This document shows positions 10,135 to 64,000 of a stretch of DNA of 64,000 nt, one piece after another. Position 1 is the stretch's first letter. Every line of letters starts with the position of its first letter. The DNA is from an uncultured bacterium (GTDB lineage: Bacteria; Patescibacteriota; Saccharimonadia; Saccharimonadales; 2-12-FULL-41-12). The stretch covers positions 652,346-716,345 of the forward strand of contig CAWIAU010000001.1 in the NCBI GenBank assembly GCA_963834265.1, read 5' to 3'. Position numbers and translations under genes: made by a program. The notes beneath the pieces were generated by a model, which was given only the letters and a program-made list of their open reading frames with translations, did no database searches and had not been told where the DNA came from.

Positions 10135-11206
10135 TTTCTGCAGCAAGATTGGTGTTCCACATGGCGGCTGTGACGGATTGAACTAAATCTGCACCGGCAC
10201 TGCGGTAATCATGAAAATCATCCGGCGTCATAACACCACCTATGCCTATAATTTCATAATCGTAATTATATTTTTTGCGAATTTCGAACAGACGCCTGAC
10301 CATATCCACTCCGGCCCACTTAATGCCTGCTCCGCAAACACCACTACGAAGACGTCCCTTGCCCGGCAGCATCTGATTACCATATTTGTCTACTATTGCC
10401 GCAGGAATAGTATTTATTGCAGAATAGGCTCTCAAATACGGAGCGCTGTCCTTTATTATTTGCTCCAGCAAATCCTGTTGGACGGGGGCAAAATAGCCGA
10501 GCTTTCCGATCAGAGGTATATCGCCAACAGCTTCTTTAACTTTGCGTGCGATTGTTACCACTGAGTCATGGTTATAGCAAAGAACTCCTTCGCTGGCCAC
10601 ATTCGGGCATGAGAAGTTTACTTCTATCACTTTGACGCCAGTGCTCGCCGCCAGCTTCGCCGTATAAGCAAAATCATCGAAGTAATCCTGCTGACTAAAT
10701 CTTTCTTTGATAGTCCCTACAACACCCGCAATCAGAAGCTGTCCTTTGCCTTGCGCAGAAAAAGATTTTTTCATATCTTCAACCCAGAAATCCGGGCCAC
10801 GGGACGGATTCCCGAATGAATTAGTAATGGTAAGCTTTTCGAGCGATGTATCAGATGTCATACGCCCTATAAGCGGCTGTGCGGCTTTCTCCAATGTCAA
10901 ATCCCCATCCACCTCAACATATACGACATTAGGAAATTCATTCGCAGGGAATGACAAGCTGCGCTGCGTTTTATAGACATTTACATCAAAACCCCGCTCA
11001 AAAGCATGCCTGATGTGTTTACTCGTTGGCAATGATCCGGCGCCGATGCCAAACGGAGAATATATAGGAAAACCTAAGAAACTGTATGCAGGCTCTCCGG
11101 TATTTTTAAATGCTGCTGCTGTTAAATCTGCGGGAAAAGGACCATTATCAAAGTTATCGTCGAAAGTTTTAGCTGGATCTGAAAATACTGCTTTTCGATC
11201 GGGCAT
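10112..11206 (-). CDS. pyrD: dihydroorotate dehydrogenase family protein
   Basis: NFSCPNV active-site loop, GIGGV near the C-terminus, and location next to pyrF/pyrE. Confidence 0.7.
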   Translation of the reverse strand: MPDRKAVFSDPAKTFDDNFDNGPFPADLTAAAFKNTGEPAYSFLGFPIYSPFGIGAGSLPTSKHIRHAFERGFDVNVYKTQRSLSFPANEFPNVVYVEVDGDLTLEKAAQPLIGRMTSDTSLEKLTITNSFGNPSRGPDFWVEDMKKSFSAQGKGQLLIAGVVGTIKERFSQQDYFDDFAYTAKLAASTGVKVIEVNFSCPNVASEGVLCYNHDSVVTIARKVKEAVGDIPLIGKLGYFAPVQQDLLEQIIKDSAPYLRAYSAINTIPAAIVDKYGNQMLPGKGRLRSGVCGAGIKWAGVDMVRRLFEIRKKYNYDYEIIGIGGVMTPDDFHDYRSAGADLVQSVTAAMWNTNLAAEIKQSLKS

Positions 11207-49080: not shown

Positions 49081-52000
49081 TTAGACATCCAGATCAACTC
49101 TTTCGCTGTCCGGCAAATCATCGAAATCACCATCCGGACGGTAGCCGGTACCTACAGGAATACGCCGACCCAGAATCACGTTTTCTTTGAGTCCGAACAG
49201 ATGGTCGACTTTGCCACTGGTAGCAGCTGCAATCAGTACGCGGGTCGTATCTTGGAAAGATGCAGCAGACAGGAATGAGTCAGTACTGAGGGAAGCTTTG
49301 GTAATTCCCAGAAGTAACTGGGTTACAATAGCCGGTTCTTTGCCTTCGTTTGCTAATTGTTCGTTGGCATTTACAACTGTCAGTTTGCTCACTACGTCGC
49401 CTGTAACGAATTCGCTGTCTCCGGAATCTTCGATCTGAACCCTCGAGAACAACTGGCGTACGATGATTTCGAGGTGCTTGTCGGCAATATTCTGACCCTG
49501 GCTGGCAAAAATACGAAGAATTTCGTTCATAATGTAACGCTGGGTAGATTCTACACCTTGTAAGCGCATAAGATCATGAAGATTTATCGAACCATTGGTC
49601 AGACGCTGGCCGGCTACGACGGTATCACCGTCTTTGACCAGTATCTGCTTATAGCCGGGAATGTCGTATTTGACAACACTTTGTCCCGCAGGAGTAATGG
49701 TGATGACTTTTTTGTTCATCGATATTTTGCCGGCCACCGGAGCGATCAAGGGACTTTCACCGCCTTCGGCAGCAGCAATGACATCACCGACTGCAACTTC
49801 GGACCCGACTGCAACATGTACTGTGCGCTCTCCGATAGTAAGCTCGCTTGTCTTAGCCTGATCATCAGTAACCTGAACGGCATAATGCTCGCCCTCCTCC
49901 CAAACACTGACCATACCAGGAATATCTGACAGGAAAGCTTTACCCTTAGGTACCCGAACTTCAAACAGCTCTTCAACACGAGGCAAACCCTGAGTAATGT
50001 CATCGGCTACCGCAGCACCACCACTATGGAAGGTTCGCAGAGTCAACTGAGTACCAGGTTCGCCGATACTTTGAGCAGCAATGACACCTACGGGACTATG
50101 ATCAGCAACGAGCTGGCCTGTTGCCGGATCAAGTCCGTAGCTTTTACGGTTGATACCACGAACGGTGCTACAACTTAGAACACTCATTATCCGAACGCCG
50201 TCCAGACTGGTATCGGCTTCGATAGCTGTGGCTGCTTCGCCCGATATGAGTTCACCTTTTTTGACATATTTTGCAATGTTCTCAGCTGCAAATCGCCCTG
50301 CGAGACGCGAGGTGTAGGTAACACCGATCTCAGCCGCATCAGAACGGAACATAGCGAATCCGGGATCTACAGCACCTTCTTCAATCGTAAAGACGTCCTG
50401 AGCGACATCGACCAGACGACGGGTCAGATAACCGGAGTCGGCAGTCTTCAGAGCAGTATCGATCAGGCCTTTGCGCTGACCACGGGTAGAAATGAAGTAT
50501 TCCAGCGGGTTCAGGCCGTCCCTGTAGTTGTTCCTGATAGGTAGCTCCATAGCACGTCCGGAGGCATCTGAGAGGATACCGACAGAACCTATAACCTGCT
50601 TGACCTGCACGATTGAACCACGGGCACCAGACGTGACTGCCAGCGACATTGCGTTATCTTCGTTTGCAAACTGCTCGGTCAGAGCCTTCTGCACCTTGCT
50701 ATCTGCTTCGGTCCAGGTTTCAATAGTCAGTCGATAGCGTTCGTCTTCGGTAATGAAGCCCTGATCGTACTGTTCGCTGACAGCAGTTGCCCGCTTCTCG
50801 CCGGCATCTAATATGACATCCAGCTTCCTGACATCTACAAAGTCACTCATACCCATAGATAATCCGGACTTTGTGGCAAAGGTGAACCCAAGGGTCTTCA
50901 GTTCGTCAGCAATTTCGGCGCTGGCTTCCTGTCCATAACGCTGATAGACTTTGGCCATAATCTGAGCCAGCTTCTTTTTAGTTGTCGGCTCATCCTGGAA
51001 CTCGAAGTCCTGCGGAAAAATTTCGTTGAACAGGAAGCGACCCAGAGTACTTTCCCGTTTACTGCCGCGGTAGTTTATGGATATGCGATCCTGCAAAGCT
51101 AATCCGCCGCCATCAAAAGCCATCAAAGCTTCTGCCAAAGCCGAATACGGTTTCGCTACCTGACTTGCGCCGGGGCGCTCATAGGTAAGATAGTAACAAC
51201 CGAGCACAATATCCTGTTCGATGTGAAGAATGGGTGTACCATCTGCAGGCTTAAGTAGGTTCTTGTTGGCAGCCATAATATCGCGGGCTTCAGCCTGAGC
51301 ACGGTCTGACAGAGGCAGATGGACAGCCATCTGGTCACCGTCAAAGTCGGCATTGAAACCTTTACAAACCAGTGGGTGCAACTGGATAGCTTTCCCCTCA
51401 ATCAATACGGGCTGGAAAGCCTGAATACTAAGACGGTGCAAAGAAGGCGCGCGGTTCAGAAGAACGTACTTACCTTTGATTACTTCATCCAGAGCATCCC
51501 AGACGGCTACTTCCCCAGCTTCAATCATACGGGTAGCGCTACGAATATTATGAGCGAGTTCCTGCTGGATCAGCTGACCAATTACGAAGGGCTTGAAGAG
51601 CTCGAGTGCCATCATTTTTGGCAAACCGCACTGAAACATTTTAAGCTCAGGTCCGGACACGATAACAGAACGGCCGGAATAATCCACCCGCTTCCCGAGA
51701 AGGTTCTGACGGAAGCGGCCTTGTTTGCCCTTGAGCATATCACTGAGAGATTTAAGGCGTCGTCGTCTGACCGGTGGCTGCAACTGCACGACCGCTGCGA
51801 GCCGAACTGTTGTCGATCAATGCATCCACAGCTTCCTGTAACATACGCTGCTCATTACGTCGAATGACTTCGGGAGCATTCAGGTCGATCAGCTTCTTTA
51901 AGCCGTTATTTCGATTGATAACTCGTCGGTAGAGGTCATTCAGATCAGATGTAGCGAATCGTCCACCTGTCAGCTGAACCATCGGACGAAGATCCGGAGG

Positions 52001-57210: not shown

Positions 57211-57432
57211 CTTCTTAAGACACTTCACCATTCCTCGGTTCGAGTCTACTCTACAATTAGACTAGTAATCGTTCGGACCGGCTGTATTTAATATATTTAA
57301 TGGGATCGACTTCTTGGACTGGTTCTAGATCCGACCAATCTCTTCATAGGGAATAGACGGTATTAAACCCGATCCGGTTCCATGACCGTTCTGAGGCTTG
57401 CCAGTCAGGGATGTAATGCTTAGGTTAAAAAC

Positions 57433-57966
57433 CTATAAACCCCAGAGCGTAACCCACCAAGGCACATCGGCCGTAACTACGGGCGCTACCGGCAACTCAC
57501 AGTTACTTATAGTACCGTTCGTGCCTTTATAGCATTCATCACTTCCAGCCCCGCCATTGACGGTTGAGTTGCCACTTCCGGACAGGTAGTCATTGCCACC
57601 GTTTCCGTTAATTTGTTGGCCGCCGGGGCTTTTATCATACACTTTGTCATTACCCGCACCAGCATTTGTAGTATTGCCCCAACCCTTCAGGATAATTACG
57701 TCATCACCGCCATTGCCTTCAATAGCGTTTACTGCTCCGGCCACGATGCAGTCATTGCCGCCCTTGCCATCAACCGAGTTAGAGTCTCCGGCAAAAATCA
57801 AATCATTTCCAGCCGTACCGACTATAGCGCTGGCGCTGCCTCCCTCAATGGTTTTGGTGTAAGTGCCCGTGCACTCTGCCGGTTTGACGGGTACCGCTAC
57901 AGCTGCTCCGGATAATCCGAATACCAAACCCGCGCTCAATGCTATTAGTTGTATAAATTTTTTCAT
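57433..57966 (-). CDS. secreted protein with RTX/hemolysin-type calcium-binding-like Gly/Asp repeats
   Basis: Signal peptide MKKFIQLIALSAGLVFGLSGAAVA. Repeats GTAGNDLIFAGD, GKGGNDCIVAG, GNGGDDVIIL, AGAGNDKVY, GNGGNDYLSG, GGAGSD. GGGGGA ribosome-binding site upstream. Confidence 0.7.
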   Translation of the reverse strand: MKKFIQLIALSAGLVFGLSGAAVAVPVKPAECTGTYTKTIEGGSASAIVGTAGNDLIFAGDSNSVDGKGGNDCIVAGAVNAIEGNGGDDVIILKGWGNTTNAGAGNDKVYDKSPGGQQINGNGGNDYLSGSGNSTVNGGAGSDECYKGTNGTISNCELPVAPVVTADVPWWVTLWGL

Positions 57967-57976
57967 CGATTCCCCC

Positions 57977-58105
57977 TTATTCTTTCCTCTTATGTCTACT
58001 CAGTATATCAAGCTCTAAGAAATGCTGGCAAGCGATTCTGTTTCGGTTGCTTTTGTTCAGGCTTAGCCGCTGTTGTTGCAAATACTCTTCAAGTGATTGA
58101 ATCAC
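57977..58105 (-). pseudogene. degenerate third immunity-like start (42-aa ORF, GTG start)
   Basis: My translation: VIQSLEEYLQQQRLSL...*. The first ~30 nt resemble the [11 protein letters not shown] start of the two paralogues. It is preceded by the toxin-tail remnant SSKAAGCR*. Confidence 0.3.
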
Positions 58106-58111
58106 CTACAA

Positions 58112-58191
58112 CCTGCCGCCTTACTACTTTAGGATAAAACTTAGCCATAATTAATACTCTGGGATATTTTTTGGTATTGGTTTGTCATTTA
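58112..58191 (-). repeat. junction repeat copy A (3' end of the 59673..60068-type gene + spacer + toxin-tail remnant)
   Basis: 58128-58191 is identical by eye (64/64) to 59650-59713, and 58112-58123 (cctgccgcctta) is identical to 59634-59645 and 60367-60378. Confidence 0.85.
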
Positions 58192-58280
58192 TAACGACAT
58201 AGCCCCCTCTTTTATCATTTGATACTACAAATATTCATGATTGATATTATGTCATTTTGCTTAGTTGTAAATTTTATTCA

Positions 58281-58562
58281 CTATTTATTACCTTTACTCA
58301 GATGTTCAGTAAATTCTTGTTTCCAATTCTTAAAGTCAACAACTCCATAAATCAACGTGCCTTTTTCGTCAATTGCTCCGGCAAGACTAAGTGTATCAAT
58401 AAACTCTCTTAAAACTGGATACTTTGCCTGGATTTCTTCAGATAGTTTTTCATTCTCTGGATGATCAAATTTTTCTGCCCACAGTGCAACTTCAATGGGA
58501 TTTTTTGTGCCCGATATTAATTCATCTACAAGTTTGAGCGCTTTCTTGGTCAATTTTTCCAT
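58281..58562 (-). CDS. hypothetical 93-aa protein in the immunity array
   Basis: ORF with helical composition; assigned from context only. Confidence 0.5.
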   Translation of the reverse strand: MEKLTKKALKLVDELISGTKNPIEVALWAEKFDHPENEKLSEEIQAKYPVLREFIDTLSLAGAIDEKGTLIYGVVDFKNWKQEFTEHLSKGNK

Positions 58563-58589
58563 TTTATTTTGAAGAACCCTCGTTAGAAT

Positions 58590-59321
58590 TTACGTATTCA
58601 CGAGGTGTTTAATGGTTTTATTAGCCTCACGAACATATAAATCATCACTACTTATAGATATTAACCTTTCGAGTTGGGGTATCAACTCCACTATTTTCAG
58701 CTTATCTACAGGGTTAAGAGCTGCCAGTTTAACTGACTCGTCGTTGATGAGCTCCTTAATTACTTGTTTTGTTTCCGGTACAAATTTTTTAAATTGCGCA
58801 AGACCCCACACTAACGATACTCGCGCATACGACAAGTTCTTATCCTCACAAAGCTTTGTGTACGCTTGATACGATTCACGATCCTGTAAAGGCACAAGTT
58901 TTACTAGAGTGCCCGCAACAGCCGTTTGGCTATTAATTATGTAGTCCGGCCATTTGCTATCGTATCCCATCAAGCTAAATTTTTGTGCTAAAAGCATGAA
59001 AAGATTTTTATCTCTCTTATGACTATCTAAAATCATTGAGAAAAGAGACCTGACCTGTAGATATTTATCATCATTTATGCTTGCTACAGCAGGTGCAATA
59101 AGTTGTCTGCTGAATTCTTGTTCGCTTCTTATTTTTTTACCAAAATCTGGGAGTGAAAGAATATCGGCCACAATCTTTTTTTCAACATTATTCTTAATCA
59201 GAAAACTCTTAAGAAGCGCTAGTCTTTCGTCGTTAGAAAACGGCTGGCCCCATTTTATATGAGCTTTCTGATTTCTTTCATCAGAAGCATTAATTCTGGT
59301 TAGAAGTTTATCATTTTTCAT
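58590..59321 (-). CDS. hypothetical 243-aa helical-repeat protein in the immunity array
   Basis: ORF; all-alpha repeat-like composition; assigned from context only. Confidence 0.5.
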   Translation of the reverse strand: MKNDKLLTRINASDERNQKAHIKWGQPFSNDERLALLKSFLIKNNVEKKIVADILSLPDFGKKIRSEQEFSRQLIAPAVASINDDKYLQVRSLFSMILDSHKRDKNLFMLLAQKFSLMGYDSKWPDYIINSQTAVAGTLVKLVPLQDRESYQAYTKLCEDKNLSYARVSLVWGLAQFKKFVPETKQVIKELINDESVKLAALNPVDKLKIVELIPQLERLISISSDDLYVREANKTIKHLVNT

Positions 59322-59345
59322 AGCTAGTACGGTTCGTATTATCTT

Positions 59346-59627
59346 TTAATCAAAAGAGTTTTTATTTTGTATGATCTTTTTCAATATTCTTTTAATCTCC
59401 GAGGTTCGCTCAAAACACTGTTCCCTAAAGCCTGGGAAGTCGTGTCCCATCAGCTCAGTGAATTTCTGATACACTAATGCACCTACTTCTGCCTCAGACA
59501 TATGTGGTTCAAAAGCCGACTGGATTGTGGATGCCTCTAAACTATACTCATCTGAAGGGGCTCCAAGTTCCTGGATAAATCCCATGGGATCCCAAGACGC
59601 AAAATATTCTTCTAATACTTTACTCAT
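59346..59627 (-). CDS. immunity-like protein, paralogue 2 (DUF1871-like pattern)
   Basis: [18 protein letters not shown]... The first 18 aa are identical to 60103..60360 and the rest is roughly 40-50 percent identical. WDPxG...AP.DEY resembles DUF1871. Confidence 0.65.
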   Translation of the reverse strand: MSKVLEEYFASWDPMGFIQELGAPSDEYSLEASTIQSAFEPHMSEAEVGALVYQKFTELMGHDFPGFREQCFERTSEIKRILKKIIQNKNSFD

Positions 59628-59713
59628 CTAAACCCTGCCGCCTTAATGCTTTAGGATAAAACTTAGCCATAATTAATACTCTGGGATATTTTTTGGTATT
59701 GGTTTGTCATTTA
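59570..59713 (-). repeat. junction repeat copy B
   Basis: 59570-59645 matches 60303-60378 (immunity 5' end plus toxin tail, about 92 percent by eye). 59650-59713 matches 58128-58191. Confidence 0.85.
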
Positions 59714-60068
59714 TTATGACTTCAATTTTCTCAGGCTGTATCGAGGCAAGCAAATCAGTCCCGTCCACTTTTATGATCTCCAGTTCATGTAAAAAACCAT
59801 TAATTACATGGAGAAGTATGTCGACAACTACTCCATCTGTATCATGCGTAGTACCTTCAACTGGTAAATTATTAAGGGTAACGGCTCTATTAGAACCCTC
59901 TGCTTTAAAGTATATACTTCCGTAGTTATCGTCATCTGCAGCAGAAATAACCGTCGGGGATTTTGTCTGCTGTTTAATTTCTTCACTCCCAGGAAAAGGA
60001 TGCTCCAGAAGCTTACTTATAATCACGTACTCTAGTTCTGTTAATGGACGCTCGGGTATTTCTTTCAT
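59673..60068 (-). CDS. second immunity-like protein (131 aa)
   Basis: Pattern ...DDDNYGSIYF......DTDGVVVDILLHVINGFLHELEIIKVDG resembles a family I recall next to polymorphic toxins (DUF6984-like). That recollection is not verified. Confidence 0.55.
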   Translation of the reverse strand: MKEIPERPLTELEYVIISKLLEHPFPGSEEIKQQTKSPTVISAADDDNYGSIYFKAEGSNRAVTLNNLPVEGTTHDTDGVVVDILLHVINGFLHELEIIKVDGTDLLASIQPEKIEVIINDKPIPKNIPEY

Positions 60069-60102
60069 TATTCAATCCTTATGAAACTAGTGGACTTTCG
60101 TA

Positions 60103-60360
60103 TTATCTTTTGCTCAAAAGAGTTCTCATTTCATGAGATCTATCTAAACATTCTTTTTCAAAACCTACTGGATCAATCCCCATAAAGTCGGTAAATATGG
60201 AATGTACTAACTCTGCCAGCTCCTTATTATCCATGTTAGGCTTAAATTTCCGTGCTATTTCAGCCGCTTCTAAACTATATTCATCTATAGGAGCGCCATC
60301 TTTTTTAATAAATCCCATTGGATCCCACGATGCAAAATATTCTTCTAATACTTTACTCAT
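60103..60360 (-). CDS. immunity-like protein, paralogue 1; start overlaps the toxin stop (ATGA)
   Basis: [31 protein letters not shown]...; ATG at 60360 overlaps the TGA at 60357-60359. Confidence 0.7.
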
Positions 60361-61082
60361 CTAAATCCTGCCGCCTTACTGGATTTAGCAATTACCGTCA
60401 CTACTTCACCTTTTGTATTTAATACTACTTTTCCAAGAGCATTTTCATAATTATAGGTATTGCGTCCTGCATCAAATGTTTGTTTACCGTTTTTTACAAT
60501 GTGCTGTATGGCCTGAGGGCTAATCTGCGGACCACCTCTTGTACCAATACTCCTGCCTAGAGCATGTATTCTATAGCCCTGAATTACTCTATCCTTACCA
60601 TAATTTCTTACAACTTGTGGTGCGGCTTTCTTTGCGGCTTGCTTAGCCCCCTGTTTTCCAGCTTGTTTGGCCACGCCTACGCCTGCTGCTCTTAAGGCTG
60701 CCGCACCAATCTGCCAGCATACAGCAACAAATATGCCACAAGTACCGTTTAAATCTCTGTCATTCACCGGATCAGCTGGATACACATAGTTGTTTGGTGT
60801 GCCGCCTTCTACGGGGTCAACTGTCGTGAATCTGCCGAGGGTCTGGATGTATACTCTAGCACCCATCTCCATGGTGGTATTGGTGATCTTGGGTTCGGCC
60901 AGCTTCTGGTGTTGGCCGAGCCAAGCGAAGCTGTCATTGCCGGTTATGTTGGCGGGGGCGGGAGTGGCGGTTTGCTTGCCGAAGGGATCGTAAGTGAATG
61001 TGCCGGTTTGGGTGCCTCCTGCGTCGGTGGTAGCGAAGACGTCACCGTGGACGCTAGTGAGGGGAGAAGGTTTTTTGGGCAT
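60357..61082 (-). CDS. Rhs C-terminal core end plus 129-aa toxin tip (downstream frame of the frameshifted Rhs gene)
   Basis: FTYDPFGK...[39 protein letters not shown] is the Rhs core terminus. The tip (60360..60746) has a hydrophobic/Lys-Ala linker, then [31 protein letters not shown]...[16 protein letters not shown]. Confidence 0.85.
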
Positions 61083-64000
61083 TCGTAGGCGTAGCGTTCG
61101 GGCGAATTGTCAGCAGCACGCCGCCAGGCAGGCTCAGATACTTTTCGATGACGTTGGTGCTGCTATTCAAAAGAAAGTCTGGACTGTCACTGGAGCTGGT
61201 GTAACCTAGGTAGGTGTCGGTATAAGGTATACTGCTGCCACTGGCTCCCCGGTAGTAAATGCGGTCGGCCACGTCACGGTAGTACTGGATGTTAGCATCC
61301 GATCCGAAGTATTCGCGCACCAGTGAGGTCCGGTCGGAAGCGTCGTAGGCGAACTGCAAGCCGTCCAAGTGGTAGGTCGTACCAAAGCTGGTGGTATTGC
61401 CGTGGGCATCATAGCCAGGCGTAGTCAAAGATTGATCCGAACTGGATACAAGCCGGTCGGCATTGTCGTAGCAATATGTGGTCGTTGCCCCGTTGACGGT
61501 TTGGCTAGTACGGTTGGCATTTTTACCGGAATTTATATTGTAAGTACCCGTGCAAGCTGTGGGAGCGACAAAGTTGTAGGCGTAGGTATTTGTTCCGAAA
61601 GTTGCTGCCGTTAAGCGCCTGGCTTTGTCGTATGTGTACGTTTTGGATTGACTAAGCTCTGTGCCGGAAACCACTTGGCCGGACTGGGAACGCGTTACCG
61701 TGTCGCTTGGGCCAGCGCCGCCACTCCCTAGTGTATACGTCATCGCATTGGTGCGACCAAGCGTATCACGTCCTATGACAAGCTTTTGTTGGCCAGCCGT
61801 TGGATACGTTACTTGCTGCAACCGACTAAAAGCGTCGTAAGCGGTCGTGGCATAAACCGTGCCGTCAAGCTTATGACTAACCAGGCGATTGAAGTTATCA
61901 TAGGTGAATTCTTCGAGTCCCAGTTTGGGCGAAGAACGACTAACCAGGCGGCCGATGGTATCGTAACTGGTTACGGTTTGCCCTGTGACAAATGTATAGC
62001 TCATAGAATCTCTATATCCAACCACCCGGCCGAGTAGGTCAACGGTTGTTTCGACGTTAGTAGGGTCACTTGAGCTTGTAATTAACGGATTGCCATTAAC
62101 TGCCCAGTTATTGTTAATAGTACGTCCTGCCGCACCGACTGAATTTGGCGGAATAACCGTTTGAGTTACACGTCCTCGCGCATCGTGGGTAGTGCAAGTC
62201 CAGGAATCGGCATTGAGCCGATTGGCTACGACCCGTCCGGCATCATCGTAAACACTTTCGCTGACGCGGCCTGTCTGCGGTCCTCCGGCGTCGGGATCAG
62301 CCTCAGTCTTGAGTTTCATCATACCGGCTTGTTTGTACGTCTTGGTCGTGTCGCAGGGGTTTTGACGTGTTTCAGTGCCATTATAGTAGGTATAGTTTGT
62401 GGTCCCGCCGCCCGGCAGTGTTTTGGACGTTTGGCGCAAGTAGCTGCCCGATGCGCCTTGAGTTTCGTAAGTACTGCCTGTGGTTAGTCCAAGACCGGAC
62501 GGATCAAGCGTCGTAGATTGGACTAAGCTAAGTTCCGGATTAGCTCCATAGTTGCTGGTCGTAATGCTATCGCCGACACTGGTGCTGGAGTCAAAGGTTT
62601 TCTGAGTGGTAGCAAGTACGTAGTTTGGCTTGAGCAAGCTGCCCAGAGCGCTGGTTTCTGTGCCCCCCGGAGGCGTCATGTACAGTTCCAGCCGGGCGTC
62701 AGTATCTAGGACGCTGCCGACGGACTTGTTGTAGTAATCTACCCGGAGACGGTGCCAGCTATCGGCAGGATTGCTGGTATTATTGAACACCCCGTTGGCT
62801 GAAGTATTAGCCGGATGCGGACGCTGGGCACCGTCTACCCAGTCATTGATGAGCAAATTGTCGTCTATCCAGACCCGCACCCCGTCATCGGAAAAGGCTC
62901 GGAAGGTATGGTTGCCCCCAGCCGTCAAGTGAATCCAGCCGGTCAAGCTAGTCCCCCAGCCGTTGTTAGCCGCGGGTGTAATGGGCGGACTGCCGCCCCA
63001 TGTCTTGAGTATGTCGCCGCTGGCTGGGCCAACGCCAGTCGTATGGCTCTTGGGGTTGCCGAACAACACCTTAGTGTTAACTCCCGTGCCATTGCTAGCA
63101 GTTGTAACGTCGTAGTAAGCCGCGGCTAAGCCGTTGATTCCCTCTTCAAAAGTAGTCTGGGTGCGCGGTATCTGCGAAGTGTAATCCGTCGGGGCAGTCA
63201 GCGGCTTGTTATCCGTACCAAACCAGGCGGACGGGGCCGGACCGTAGTCATCGGTCTCACGATCGGCATAGTCATAGAGCGAGGTTGATTTAAGCCCGGC
63301 GGGATCGGTTATGGACTTCACCAGGTCTTTGACAGGATCCCACACAGTTGTAACGCTCAGGTTGGCAATGTCGGTATCAGTCAGCGTACGGTAAGTACCG
63401 TCATAGGTTACTTTACGGCTGAAACCATTCGGTTCAGTAGCGTTCGTAACATGCATCTGCGATGTATTGCCTGGTAAGTATTTGTAGGTGTGAGCCAAAC
63501 GAGTAGCACCGGCAGTAGCGGCCGGCAAGGTGACGCTCGCAGCGCGTCCGAGGCCATCATAGGCAACGCTAGTTAGCTCCGTCCCGTCTTGCGTACGTAC
63601 CCCAGCCGCTATGGCATCATTAGCCAGGCTGCCGCGTACCTGTGACAATAAGCCGGATTGATACGCATAGTCGGTAAACTCATTGCCCGGCATGGTTATA
63701 CGGGCAAGACGAGGCACGCTGTTCGCATCATTGACATAGAAAATACCGGTAGTCCTACTGTCCGAGCTGGTCGCACCGCAAATCATGCTCGTCGCACTGG
63801 CCGCAAGAAAGCCGGACGGGGCGGCGGGACAGGCCGAATCGCCGCCGTAGAGCACTTTGAGCCAACGACTAGAATCTACGCCGTCAGTGATCTGCGTAAT
63901 ACGAGCCGCCGAGCCGCTTGAGCTTCCATAAGTATATTTTAGGGCTGCCGGATTGCGGTCGTCAGCCGGACGGGTAACCGACTTAATCGTCCCGTCGCTA
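61054..64000 (-). CDS. Rhs/YD-repeat protein body with embedded PA14-like domain; N-terminus beyond the window
   Basis: YD repeats: [47 protein letters not shown]. My translation shows the frame stays open from 63856 to 64000 (..[27 protein letters not shown]..). PA14-like segment at 62665..63138. Confidence 0.9.

Follow-up and report, generated by a model that had tools for sequence, protein, structure and literature searches.

Probable relics of toxin-immunity junctions and an array of orphan immunity-type genes behind a putative Rhs toxin of a probable Saccharibacteria-like bacterium

Why would the junction between a toxin gene and its immunity gene be present three times in a locus that has one toxin? 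This question is raised by a locus near the end of a 64,000-nt stretch of bacterial DNA (GenBank assembly GCA_963834265.1, contig CAWIAU010000001.1; hereafter the window, numbered from its first letter), in which a predicted C-terminal toxin of an Rhs/YD-repeat protein is followed by a presumed immunity gene, immA, and by a series of further small genes, every gene of the toxin/immunity locus lying on the minus strand. It forms the 3′ end of a polymorphic-toxin locus of the Rhs/YD-repeat kind, most likely in a Saccharibacteria-like host, a placement taken from the nearest relative with a name, L009. We think it probable that it consists of an Rhs toxin with an array of orphan immunity genes, and that its additional junctions are relics of old recombination; there is no sign of ongoing toxin swapping.

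Repeats were recovered by self-BLASTN of positions 57400-61200 together with a repeat finder, and exact identities were obtained by direct alignment. This self-comparison, proposed in a sequence-only reading of the same DNA, returned all three of the junctions described there. Copy 1 (60266..60388) is the functional one and comprises the ~10 last toxin codons, a Shine-Dalgarno (SD)-like GGCGGCAGGA, an ATGA overlap of the toxin stop with the immA start, and the first ~32 immA codons. It aligns with copy 2 (59533..59654) at 84.6% identity over 123 nt (E=5e-30), the two having an exact run of 34 nt in common. Within this alignment, 60303-60378 and 59570-59645 had been read as ~92% identical; the actual figure is 68/76, or 89.5%. 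As judged from its identity to copy 1 and from the reading frames, copy 2 joins a toxin-tail relic, SIKAAGFR, to the start of an immA paralogue, immA′. Copy 3 (58080..58125), delimited by alignment of the copies and by the GC profile, holds a relic, SSKAAGCR, followed by a stub, immA″, of ~9 codons with a GTG start; it matches copy 1 at 78% over 50 nt (58077-58125 against 60331-60380) and copy 2 at 37/47 nt. Both relics and the GTG-started VIQSLEEY remnant read in the frames originally given for them. The third copy had been placed at 58070-58123; its existence holds but its extent does not, the homology covering 58080-58125. The toxin remnant in copies 2 and 3 amounts to the last 8-10 codons only. 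The whole 64-kb window has exactly three occurrences of a 22-nt core, TAAGGCGGCAGGNTKTAGRTGA, against 0 matches in 100 shuffles, and AAGGCGGCAGG is unchanged in all three junction copies.

Homology and the low-GC island that contains the array both stop near 58080. GC content is ~0.53-0.58 in the Rhs core and 0.32-0.41 from ~60750 to 58080, and it rises again near 58080; the drop at the border of core and tip, from ~55% to ~37% near 60750, is the usual mark of acquired Rhs tip and immunity genes.

The arrangement around the junctions confirms that the locus is built of repeated units of toxin tail, immA and a second gene, geneB. Unit 1 comprises all three. Unit 2 consists of the SIKAAGFR relic, immA′, ~24 nt of the immA-geneB spacer, a 1130-nt segment carrying genes of 243 and 93 aa, the last 13-15 codons of geneB and a 24-nt spacer. 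Both flanks of geneB are thus kept in this unit while its body consists of the two other genes, as expected if the second immunity gene had been mostly replaced. Unit 3, rightly described before as nearly erased, is a stub comprising the SSKAAGCR relic, the GTG start and ~9 immA-like codons. A perfect direct repeat flanks the 1456-nt cassette formed by immA′ and the 243-aa and 93-aa genes: one copy (59649..59714) contains the last 13 codons of geneB, its stop codon and the 24-nt spacer, and the other (58127..58192) contains a geneB 3′ remnant, identified by tblastn with geneB residues 117-131, and the spacer. The 64/64 identity previously noted between 58128-58191 and 59650-59713 is correct and extends to 66/66, and self-BLASTN embeds it in a longer match of 58080-58192 to 59602-59714 (89.4% over 113 nt, E=1e-36). 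A further pair of repeats, absent from the sequence-only reading, lies at the 3′ flank of the immA genes, with the immA end and the first ~15 nt of its spacer (60097..60157) matching the immA′ end and spacer (59333..59393) at 81% (E=8e-8), shifted by +31 nt with respect to the 5′ repeat.

Copies 2 and 3 share an identical illegitimate joint, in which the geneB end and 24-nt spacer abut the toxin tail. An illegitimate joint is unique; as both copies have this one, it arose once and was later copied, which means that the three units do not stand for three separate displacements.

Repeats of this kind could also be produced by faulty assembly, or by a dedicated site-specific recombination system resembling an integron or shufflon, and the window does contain probable indel errors, with frameshifts in both the Rhs gene and rpoC. 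We nevertheless consider both explanations very improbable, as the repeats are short, diverged and reproduced in an independent ENA assembly of the locus (L002), which is 99.94% identical over 6.57 kb with 4 differences and has the same three junction copies. A duplication artefact, the danger that the sequence-only reading had itself pointed out, is excluded because the same copies are found in L002 and have diverged from one another. A repeat search of the locus detected no inverted repeats or hairpin sites at the joints, Rfam and tRNA scans returned nothing in the locus, and there was no recombinase among the genes examined adjoining it. An integron-like system was rejected on the basis of the lack of structured sites at the joints and of a recombinase among the examined neighbours.

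For comparison, seven related loci were analyzed (L001, L003, L004, L005, L006, L007 and L009). With these in hand, a second alternative can be addressed, namely a plain in-place tandem triplication of the [tail-immA-geneB] unit, followed only by point mutation and decay. Three head-to-tail units with a shared joint are what such a process would leave, but identity between the units spans from 100% to random level. A maximum chi-square test of immA against immA′ places a breakpoint at +95 nt, with 83% identity upstream (including the 28-nt tail) and 50% downstream (permutation p<0.0005). At third codon positions, identity is 73% upstream and 30% downstream of this breakpoint, where 28% is expected at random (p=0.0014), and the Nei-Gojobori proportion of synonymous differences (pS) is 0.49 for codons 1-30 and 0.88, near saturation, for codons 19-84. 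Saturation of synonymous sites is not something that diversifying selection can bring about, and the immA′ body is therefore of separate, old origin.

The relationship to L001, used as an outgroup, is likewise incongruent along the gene. At the protein level, immA stands nearer to the orphan of L001 (67% aa identity) than to the neighbouring immA′ (56%), and in the body (codons 31-70) it matches L001 at 68% of nt and 25/40 aa, compared to 48% of nt and 16/40 aa for immA′. In the first 30 codons the order is reversed, with 84% identity to immA′ and 72% to L001. On these alignments, the junction of immA and immA′ is best read as having been exchanged or converted after the bodies diverged, and the breakpoint and the L001 incongruence uphold the proposal that recombination set a conserved junction beside diverged immunity bodies. 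Moreover, the geneB stub, which is non-functional, agrees with the intact geneB at 66/66 positions beside a relic identical at 37/47 (p=8e-5), a contrast that speaks for conversion or insertion at a much later time. At its 3′ end, immA′ contains a 61-nt immA-like stretch that runs past the natural end with a 31-nt shift and in another reading frame. This looks like an imprecise 3′ crossover and accounts for the 93-aa length of immA′, since the immA-like end is read in a different frame. The mosaic of identities between the units therefore implies at least two recombination or gene-conversion events rather than in-place divergence. Simple tandem duplication with point divergence only was rejected as contradicted by the mosaic, and we regard in-place triplication as improbable. 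The lineage of the array members has two sides: the divergence of the immA′ body is ancient, with immA nearer to the L001 copy, yet the shared joint and flanks indicate local duplication or conversion as well.

The related loci also provide context for the pairing of the toxin with immA and for the relics. In L003 and L007, an immA homologue comes immediately behind an end homologous to the toxin (62% and 47% identity, respectively); the two loci have the same ATGA overlap, and an SD-like GGAAGG or GGGAGG lies within the toxin's last codons. Because adjacency and the ATGA overlap are kept for the toxin and immA homologues in three loci (the window, L003 and L007), immA is presumed to encode the cognate immunity protein, and there is good contextual evidence that toxin and immA form a cognate pair. 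The immA ribosome-binding site would lie inside the toxin's last codons, where the SD-like motif is found. In L001, L004 and L009, the last from a Candidatus Saccharibacteria metagenome-assembled genome, the Rhs protein carries a different tip and the immA homologue is located farther downstream, behind a relic of the toxin 3′ end (22 codons in L001, 22 codons in L004, and a decayed tail in L009), whereas L005 and L006 have orphan immA genes without a toxin relic. Members of the immA family are thus found behind intact toxins in L003 and L007 and as orphans in L001, L004, L005, L006, L009 and unit 2 of the window, and effector 3′ remnants precede retained immunity genes in copies 2 and 3 of the window and in L001, L004 and L009. 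As relics stand before an orphan immA in several loci, they are a recurrent outcome in the family and not a peculiarity of the window.

Ahead of its orphan immA, at positions 2144-2242, L004 has the 22 last toxin codons (DVVLNKGGKVV...WIR-stop) joined in frame to a fragment of the Rhs core (...EKYLQLPG). The likeness between the core motif LPGxVLLT and the LGxVxLNT motif of the toxin suggests that the L004 toxin was removed by a short-homology deletion, and the L001 relic begins at the same toxin position as that of L004.

Conservation of the junction is the sum of three influences, namely the putative SD sequence in the toxin tail, the family-conserved N-terminus of immA, and recombination or conversion between the copies. 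No other part of the protein is as well conserved across the entire family as this N-terminus (EYxAxWDPMGFI..GAPxDEYSxEA).

The sequence-only reading had regarded the three junctions as a cassette-exchange hotspot that permits switching of tip and immunity gene. In a strong form of this explanation, the junction would be the downstream arm and the Rhs core the upstream arm for recurrent homologous swapping of whole toxin-immunity cassettes between strains. The lower divergence of the junction compared with the immA bodies, which extends to synonymous sites, is in keeping with this idea, as is the outgroup incongruence, and a right-hand crossover within immA would leave such a pattern. The exact 34-nt run between copies 1 and 2 and the perfect 66-nt repeat favor it as well, identities of these lengths exceeding the minimal homology and sufficing for RecA-type recombination. 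However, the junction lies within the 3′ end of a single toxin family and cannot anchor the exchange of different tips, and its 5′ conservation is largely explained by the family-wide N-terminus and SD. Recombination between copies 1 and 2 would merely delete immA and geneB and place immA′ behind the toxin.

The content of the locus argues in the same direction. Downstream of 60357, tblastn of the core against the window detected no Rhs core fragment, and the window contains no second or alternative toxin domain there, so that tip switching is not supported: there is one toxin, no alternative tip and no downstream core fragment, and only 8-10 toxin codons are repeated. Tip switching by way of core fragments was rejected as none is present downstream in the window; such fragments do occur in the downstream modules of L004, L007 and L009. 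Homologous Rhs cores precede unrelated tips in L001, L006 and L009, and the related loci with other toxins lack a junction of this kind beside the main toxin.

A hotspot is likewise unsupported in view of the single joint common to copies 2 and 3, which makes these one copied event, and of the stability of the arrangement, which is identical in L002 and, at the protein level, conserved in a second strain, where the immA, 243-aa, 93-aa and RTX-like genes are found at 91-99% identity. We therefore consider an active exchange hotspot unlikely. A variant in which the junction and Rhs core served as homology arms for double-crossover swaps of [toxin-immA-extra gene] cassettes, with the mosaic immA′ as the scar of a swap and the 66-nt repeats as a recent Campbell-type insertion from a circular intermediate, appears somewhat more doubtful still. 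The second-strain immA product (P0001) is recorded only from Met15, as 71 aa with one substitution, and its junction and start region may differ.

Returning to an old, recombined immunity array, the reading that we favor, the following history can be proposed. A low-GC segment (~60745 to 58080) encoding a small C-terminal toxin and immA would have been acquired horizontally, with the two genes translationally linked through the ATGA overlap and with an array of orphan immunity-type genes, namely geneB, immA′ and the 243-aa and 93-aa genes, behind the pair. The toxin would once have stood ahead of an immA copy from which it was then lost save for its last 8-10 codons, and these relic codons would persist because they carry the translation start region of the immunity gene, such that any deletion going further would destroy that gene. 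The joint would have formed a single time, when a [tail-immA-geneB] unit was duplicated or displaced, and would then have been copied by unequal recombination inside the locus. Later changes could have included homogenization or exchange of the tail together with the ~32 opening codons of immA and immA′ (~83% identical), entry of an immA′ body of separate, ancient origin, replacement of geneB in unit 2 by two other genes, a very recent event giving rise to the perfect 66-nt direct repeat around the cassette of immA′ and the 243-aa and 93-aa genes, and truncation of unit 3 at the island border. Along with this order of events, we infer the role of the SD sequence, the immunity function of the genes, and protection by the orphans against related toxins of neighbours.

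Several points weigh against this history. One genome cannot give the order of events, and with two or three closely related assemblies sampled, a low rate of ongoing rearrangement is possible. Additionally, no single simple event explains a 66/66 repeat beside a 79%-identical neighbour. The immunity roles of immA, immA′, geneB and the two unplaced genes are deduced from the sequences, the SD argument comes from motif inspection only, and the activity of the toxin is hinted at solely by a weak fold match of a low-confidence single-sequence model.

This toxin (60357..60743), delimited by GC content and by the homologous ends in L003 and L007, is predicted to comprise a hydrophobic linker and a toxin domain of ~85 aa. 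Across the three homologues, the domain (window 60360-60620) contains an invariant HALGR..GTR..SPQA. A search of 5.8e9 proteins returned 0 homologues of the domain, no PDB or Pfam sequence match was obtained with either the single sequence or a 3-sequence profile, and no NCBIfam family was matched. The single-sequence structural model has a predicted local distance difference test (pLDDT) score of 63, with one helix and four strands. The best Foldseek match to this low-confidence model was 5i4r (CdiA-CT NC101; E=0.14, probability 0.95, template modelling (TM) score 0.41), and 1tfk (colicin D) was also among the matches. A tRNase-type activity of the BECR-fold RNase kind, as in colicin D or CdiA-CT NC101, is only a lead from this model.

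The presumed cognate immunity gene, immA (60103..60360), encodes an 85-aa, all-helical protein of DUF1871 type. Its AlphaFold2 model (pLDDT 82) best matches 1u84 (TM 0.66-0.68, probability 1.0), with the same small helical-bundle fold as DUF1871 (PF08958), while the sequence scores 14.8 bits, under the Pfam gathering threshold of 22, as does a related protein, P0002, with 18.1 bits; the immunity role is assigned from gene context. The immA family comprises 192 representatives at E<=1e-3; a word-based search with immA gave only 3 matches. Two database proteins, P0017 (1521 aa) and P0035 (369 aa), carry 12 and 6 tandem immA/DUF1871-like stretches, respectively, and thus represent fused arrays. 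A literature search for DUF1871 as an immunity protein, like one for DUF6984, found nothing useful.

DUF6984 is the family of geneB (59673..60068; 131 aa; Pfam PF22480, E=1.4e-13), which probably derives, as an orphaned gene of immunity type, from a different toxin system; its exact product was not found in protein records. Among the related loci, a geneB homologue occurs only in L006 (48%), in a different Rhs immunity-like array and at a different position, and geneB is for this reason not a fixed partner of immA. Families of immunity-like genes are shuffled among the related loci. In L006 (3471-8434), at least eight small genes lie behind an Rhs toxin with a different tip, among them homologues of geneB, of a 138-aa gene of L001 and of immA, and this array looks like a polyimmunity island. 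L007 (10786-15866) and L009 (6157-8600) have two or three classical orphan modules, each with a core fragment, a new tip and small genes, downstream of the main gene.

The remaining genes of the array are immA′ (59346..59627), the 93-aa orphan paralogue of immA with 56% aa identity and a mosaic structure, the 243-aa gene (58590..59321), which occupies the geneB position in unit 2, and the 93-aa gene (58281..58562), the second gene of the replaced segment. For the 243-aa gene, a search of 5.8e9 proteins returned only the gene product itself and no Pfam or NCBIfam match was above threshold; the 93-aa gene likewise had no Pfam or NCBIfam family match. No relatives of either are detectable outside the organism, and the second strain has variants of both (P0157, 96% identical to the 243-aa product, and P0155 for the 93-aa product). 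In L002, an extra A at position 10875 (window 58754) shortens the 243-aa gene to 197 aa. Beyond the array, a 42-aa GTG-started ORF (open reading frame; 57977..58105) joins the immA″ stub with native sequence and is unlikely to be a real gene. A promoter-like site at 58031-58002 (10/12 matches, TG extension) is located inside this ORF, before the next gene, and a promoter and terminator scan of the locus gave nothing above shuffle expectation.

Upstream, the toxin is preceded by the end of the Rhs core, the two being encoded in a 241-aa ORF (60357..61082) recognized from the TIGR03696 core domain (residues 31-113, E=6.6e-10) and the GC drop. The shell itself (61054..63999), with Rhs/YD repeats and a PA14 domain, matches Pfam RHS_repeat (PF05593; E=3.2e-14) and PA14 (E=1e-11) and NCBIfam TIGR01643 (E=4.4e-9). 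Its ORF runs past the window edge, 63766-63999 being without a stop codon, and it is 44-50% identical to long Rhs proteins in L003, L006, L007 and L009. In L002 the Rhs gene is a single ORF of 2283 aa, which is broken in the window by a 1-nt indel at 61064 (within 61054-61082), where the window has C4 and L002 has C3. The extra C is more likely to be an assembly indel error; were the frameshift true, the toxin tip would be uncoupled from the Rhs shell. Each of the two assemblies has one private single-base indel within the locus. In the window, rpoC is also frameshifted (51752-51789), giving ORFs of 395 aa and 902 aa with the break just before a conserved motif; since the gene is essential, its frameshift suggests that the window assembly has indel errors. 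The product of the first gene of native GC content past the island (57433-57966) is a secreted protein of 177 aa that bears RTX-type calcium-binding repeats. The neighbours of the locus are this RTX-like protein and rpoB/rpoC, along with trigger factor and ClpP in L002.

The closest description of such an arrangement comes from T6SS (type VI secretion system) clusters of Vibrio cholerae, in which sequential displacement of effectors shifts ancestral immunity genes downstream, sometimes together with effector 3′ ends (Kirchberger et al. 2017; PMC5361080). Those arrays were further reshaped by homologous recombination, and duplication has been argued against for them (PMC5361080). As in V. cholerae, several immunity-type genes stand behind one effector in the window, and 3′ ends of the effector have been shifted along with them. 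The carrier here is instead an Rhs/YD-repeat protein in a probable Saccharibacteria-like genome, and two relics have one joint, which implies that intra-locus duplication contributed.

Displacement of Rhs C-terminal regions is also a subject of Jackson et al. 2009 (PMC2935791). The window resembles this process in that a GC-richer core ends in the TIGR03696 motif and is followed by a low-GC tip and an immunity gene. Koskiniemi et al. 2014 and Poole et al. 2011 have reportedly described orphan rhs-CT/rhsI modules. Here too, older modules lie downstream, and L004, L007 and L009 hold classical orphans with core fragments. The downstream units of the window differ from these in having neither a core fragment nor a toxin domain and in repeating the toxin 3′ end rather than the 5′ border, and they therefore cannot recombine onto the main rhs gene to switch tips.

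A third parallel is offered by the polyimmunity loci of polymorphic toxin systems, said to have been treated by Zhang et al. 2012, and by the acquired interbacterial defence clusters of Bacteroidales, orphan immunity islands reportedly described by Ross et al. 2019. Such clusters contain small, unrelated immunity-type genes without cognate toxins and are thought to protect against the toxins of neighbours. The long array of L006, with its immA and geneB homologues, is similar. The array of the window, with its putative immunity genes, is unlike them in being short, attached to an active-looking toxin gene and free of an associated recombinase.

The locus does not call for a new mechanism, the general process having already been described for T6SS and Rhs loci. 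Instead, it is a clean, small example of how an immunity array builds up behind a polymorphic toxin, preserved as a mosaic in which duplication, displacement and gene conversion are datable, and its orphan immunity genes would protect the cell against related toxins of neighbouring cells. It also adds a previously unannotated toxin/immunity pair, predicted to consist of a small toxin without a family and an immunity protein of DUF1871 fold, that is linked to Rhs proteins of bacteria, probably Saccharibacteria-like, known from metagenomes of soil and rhizosphere.

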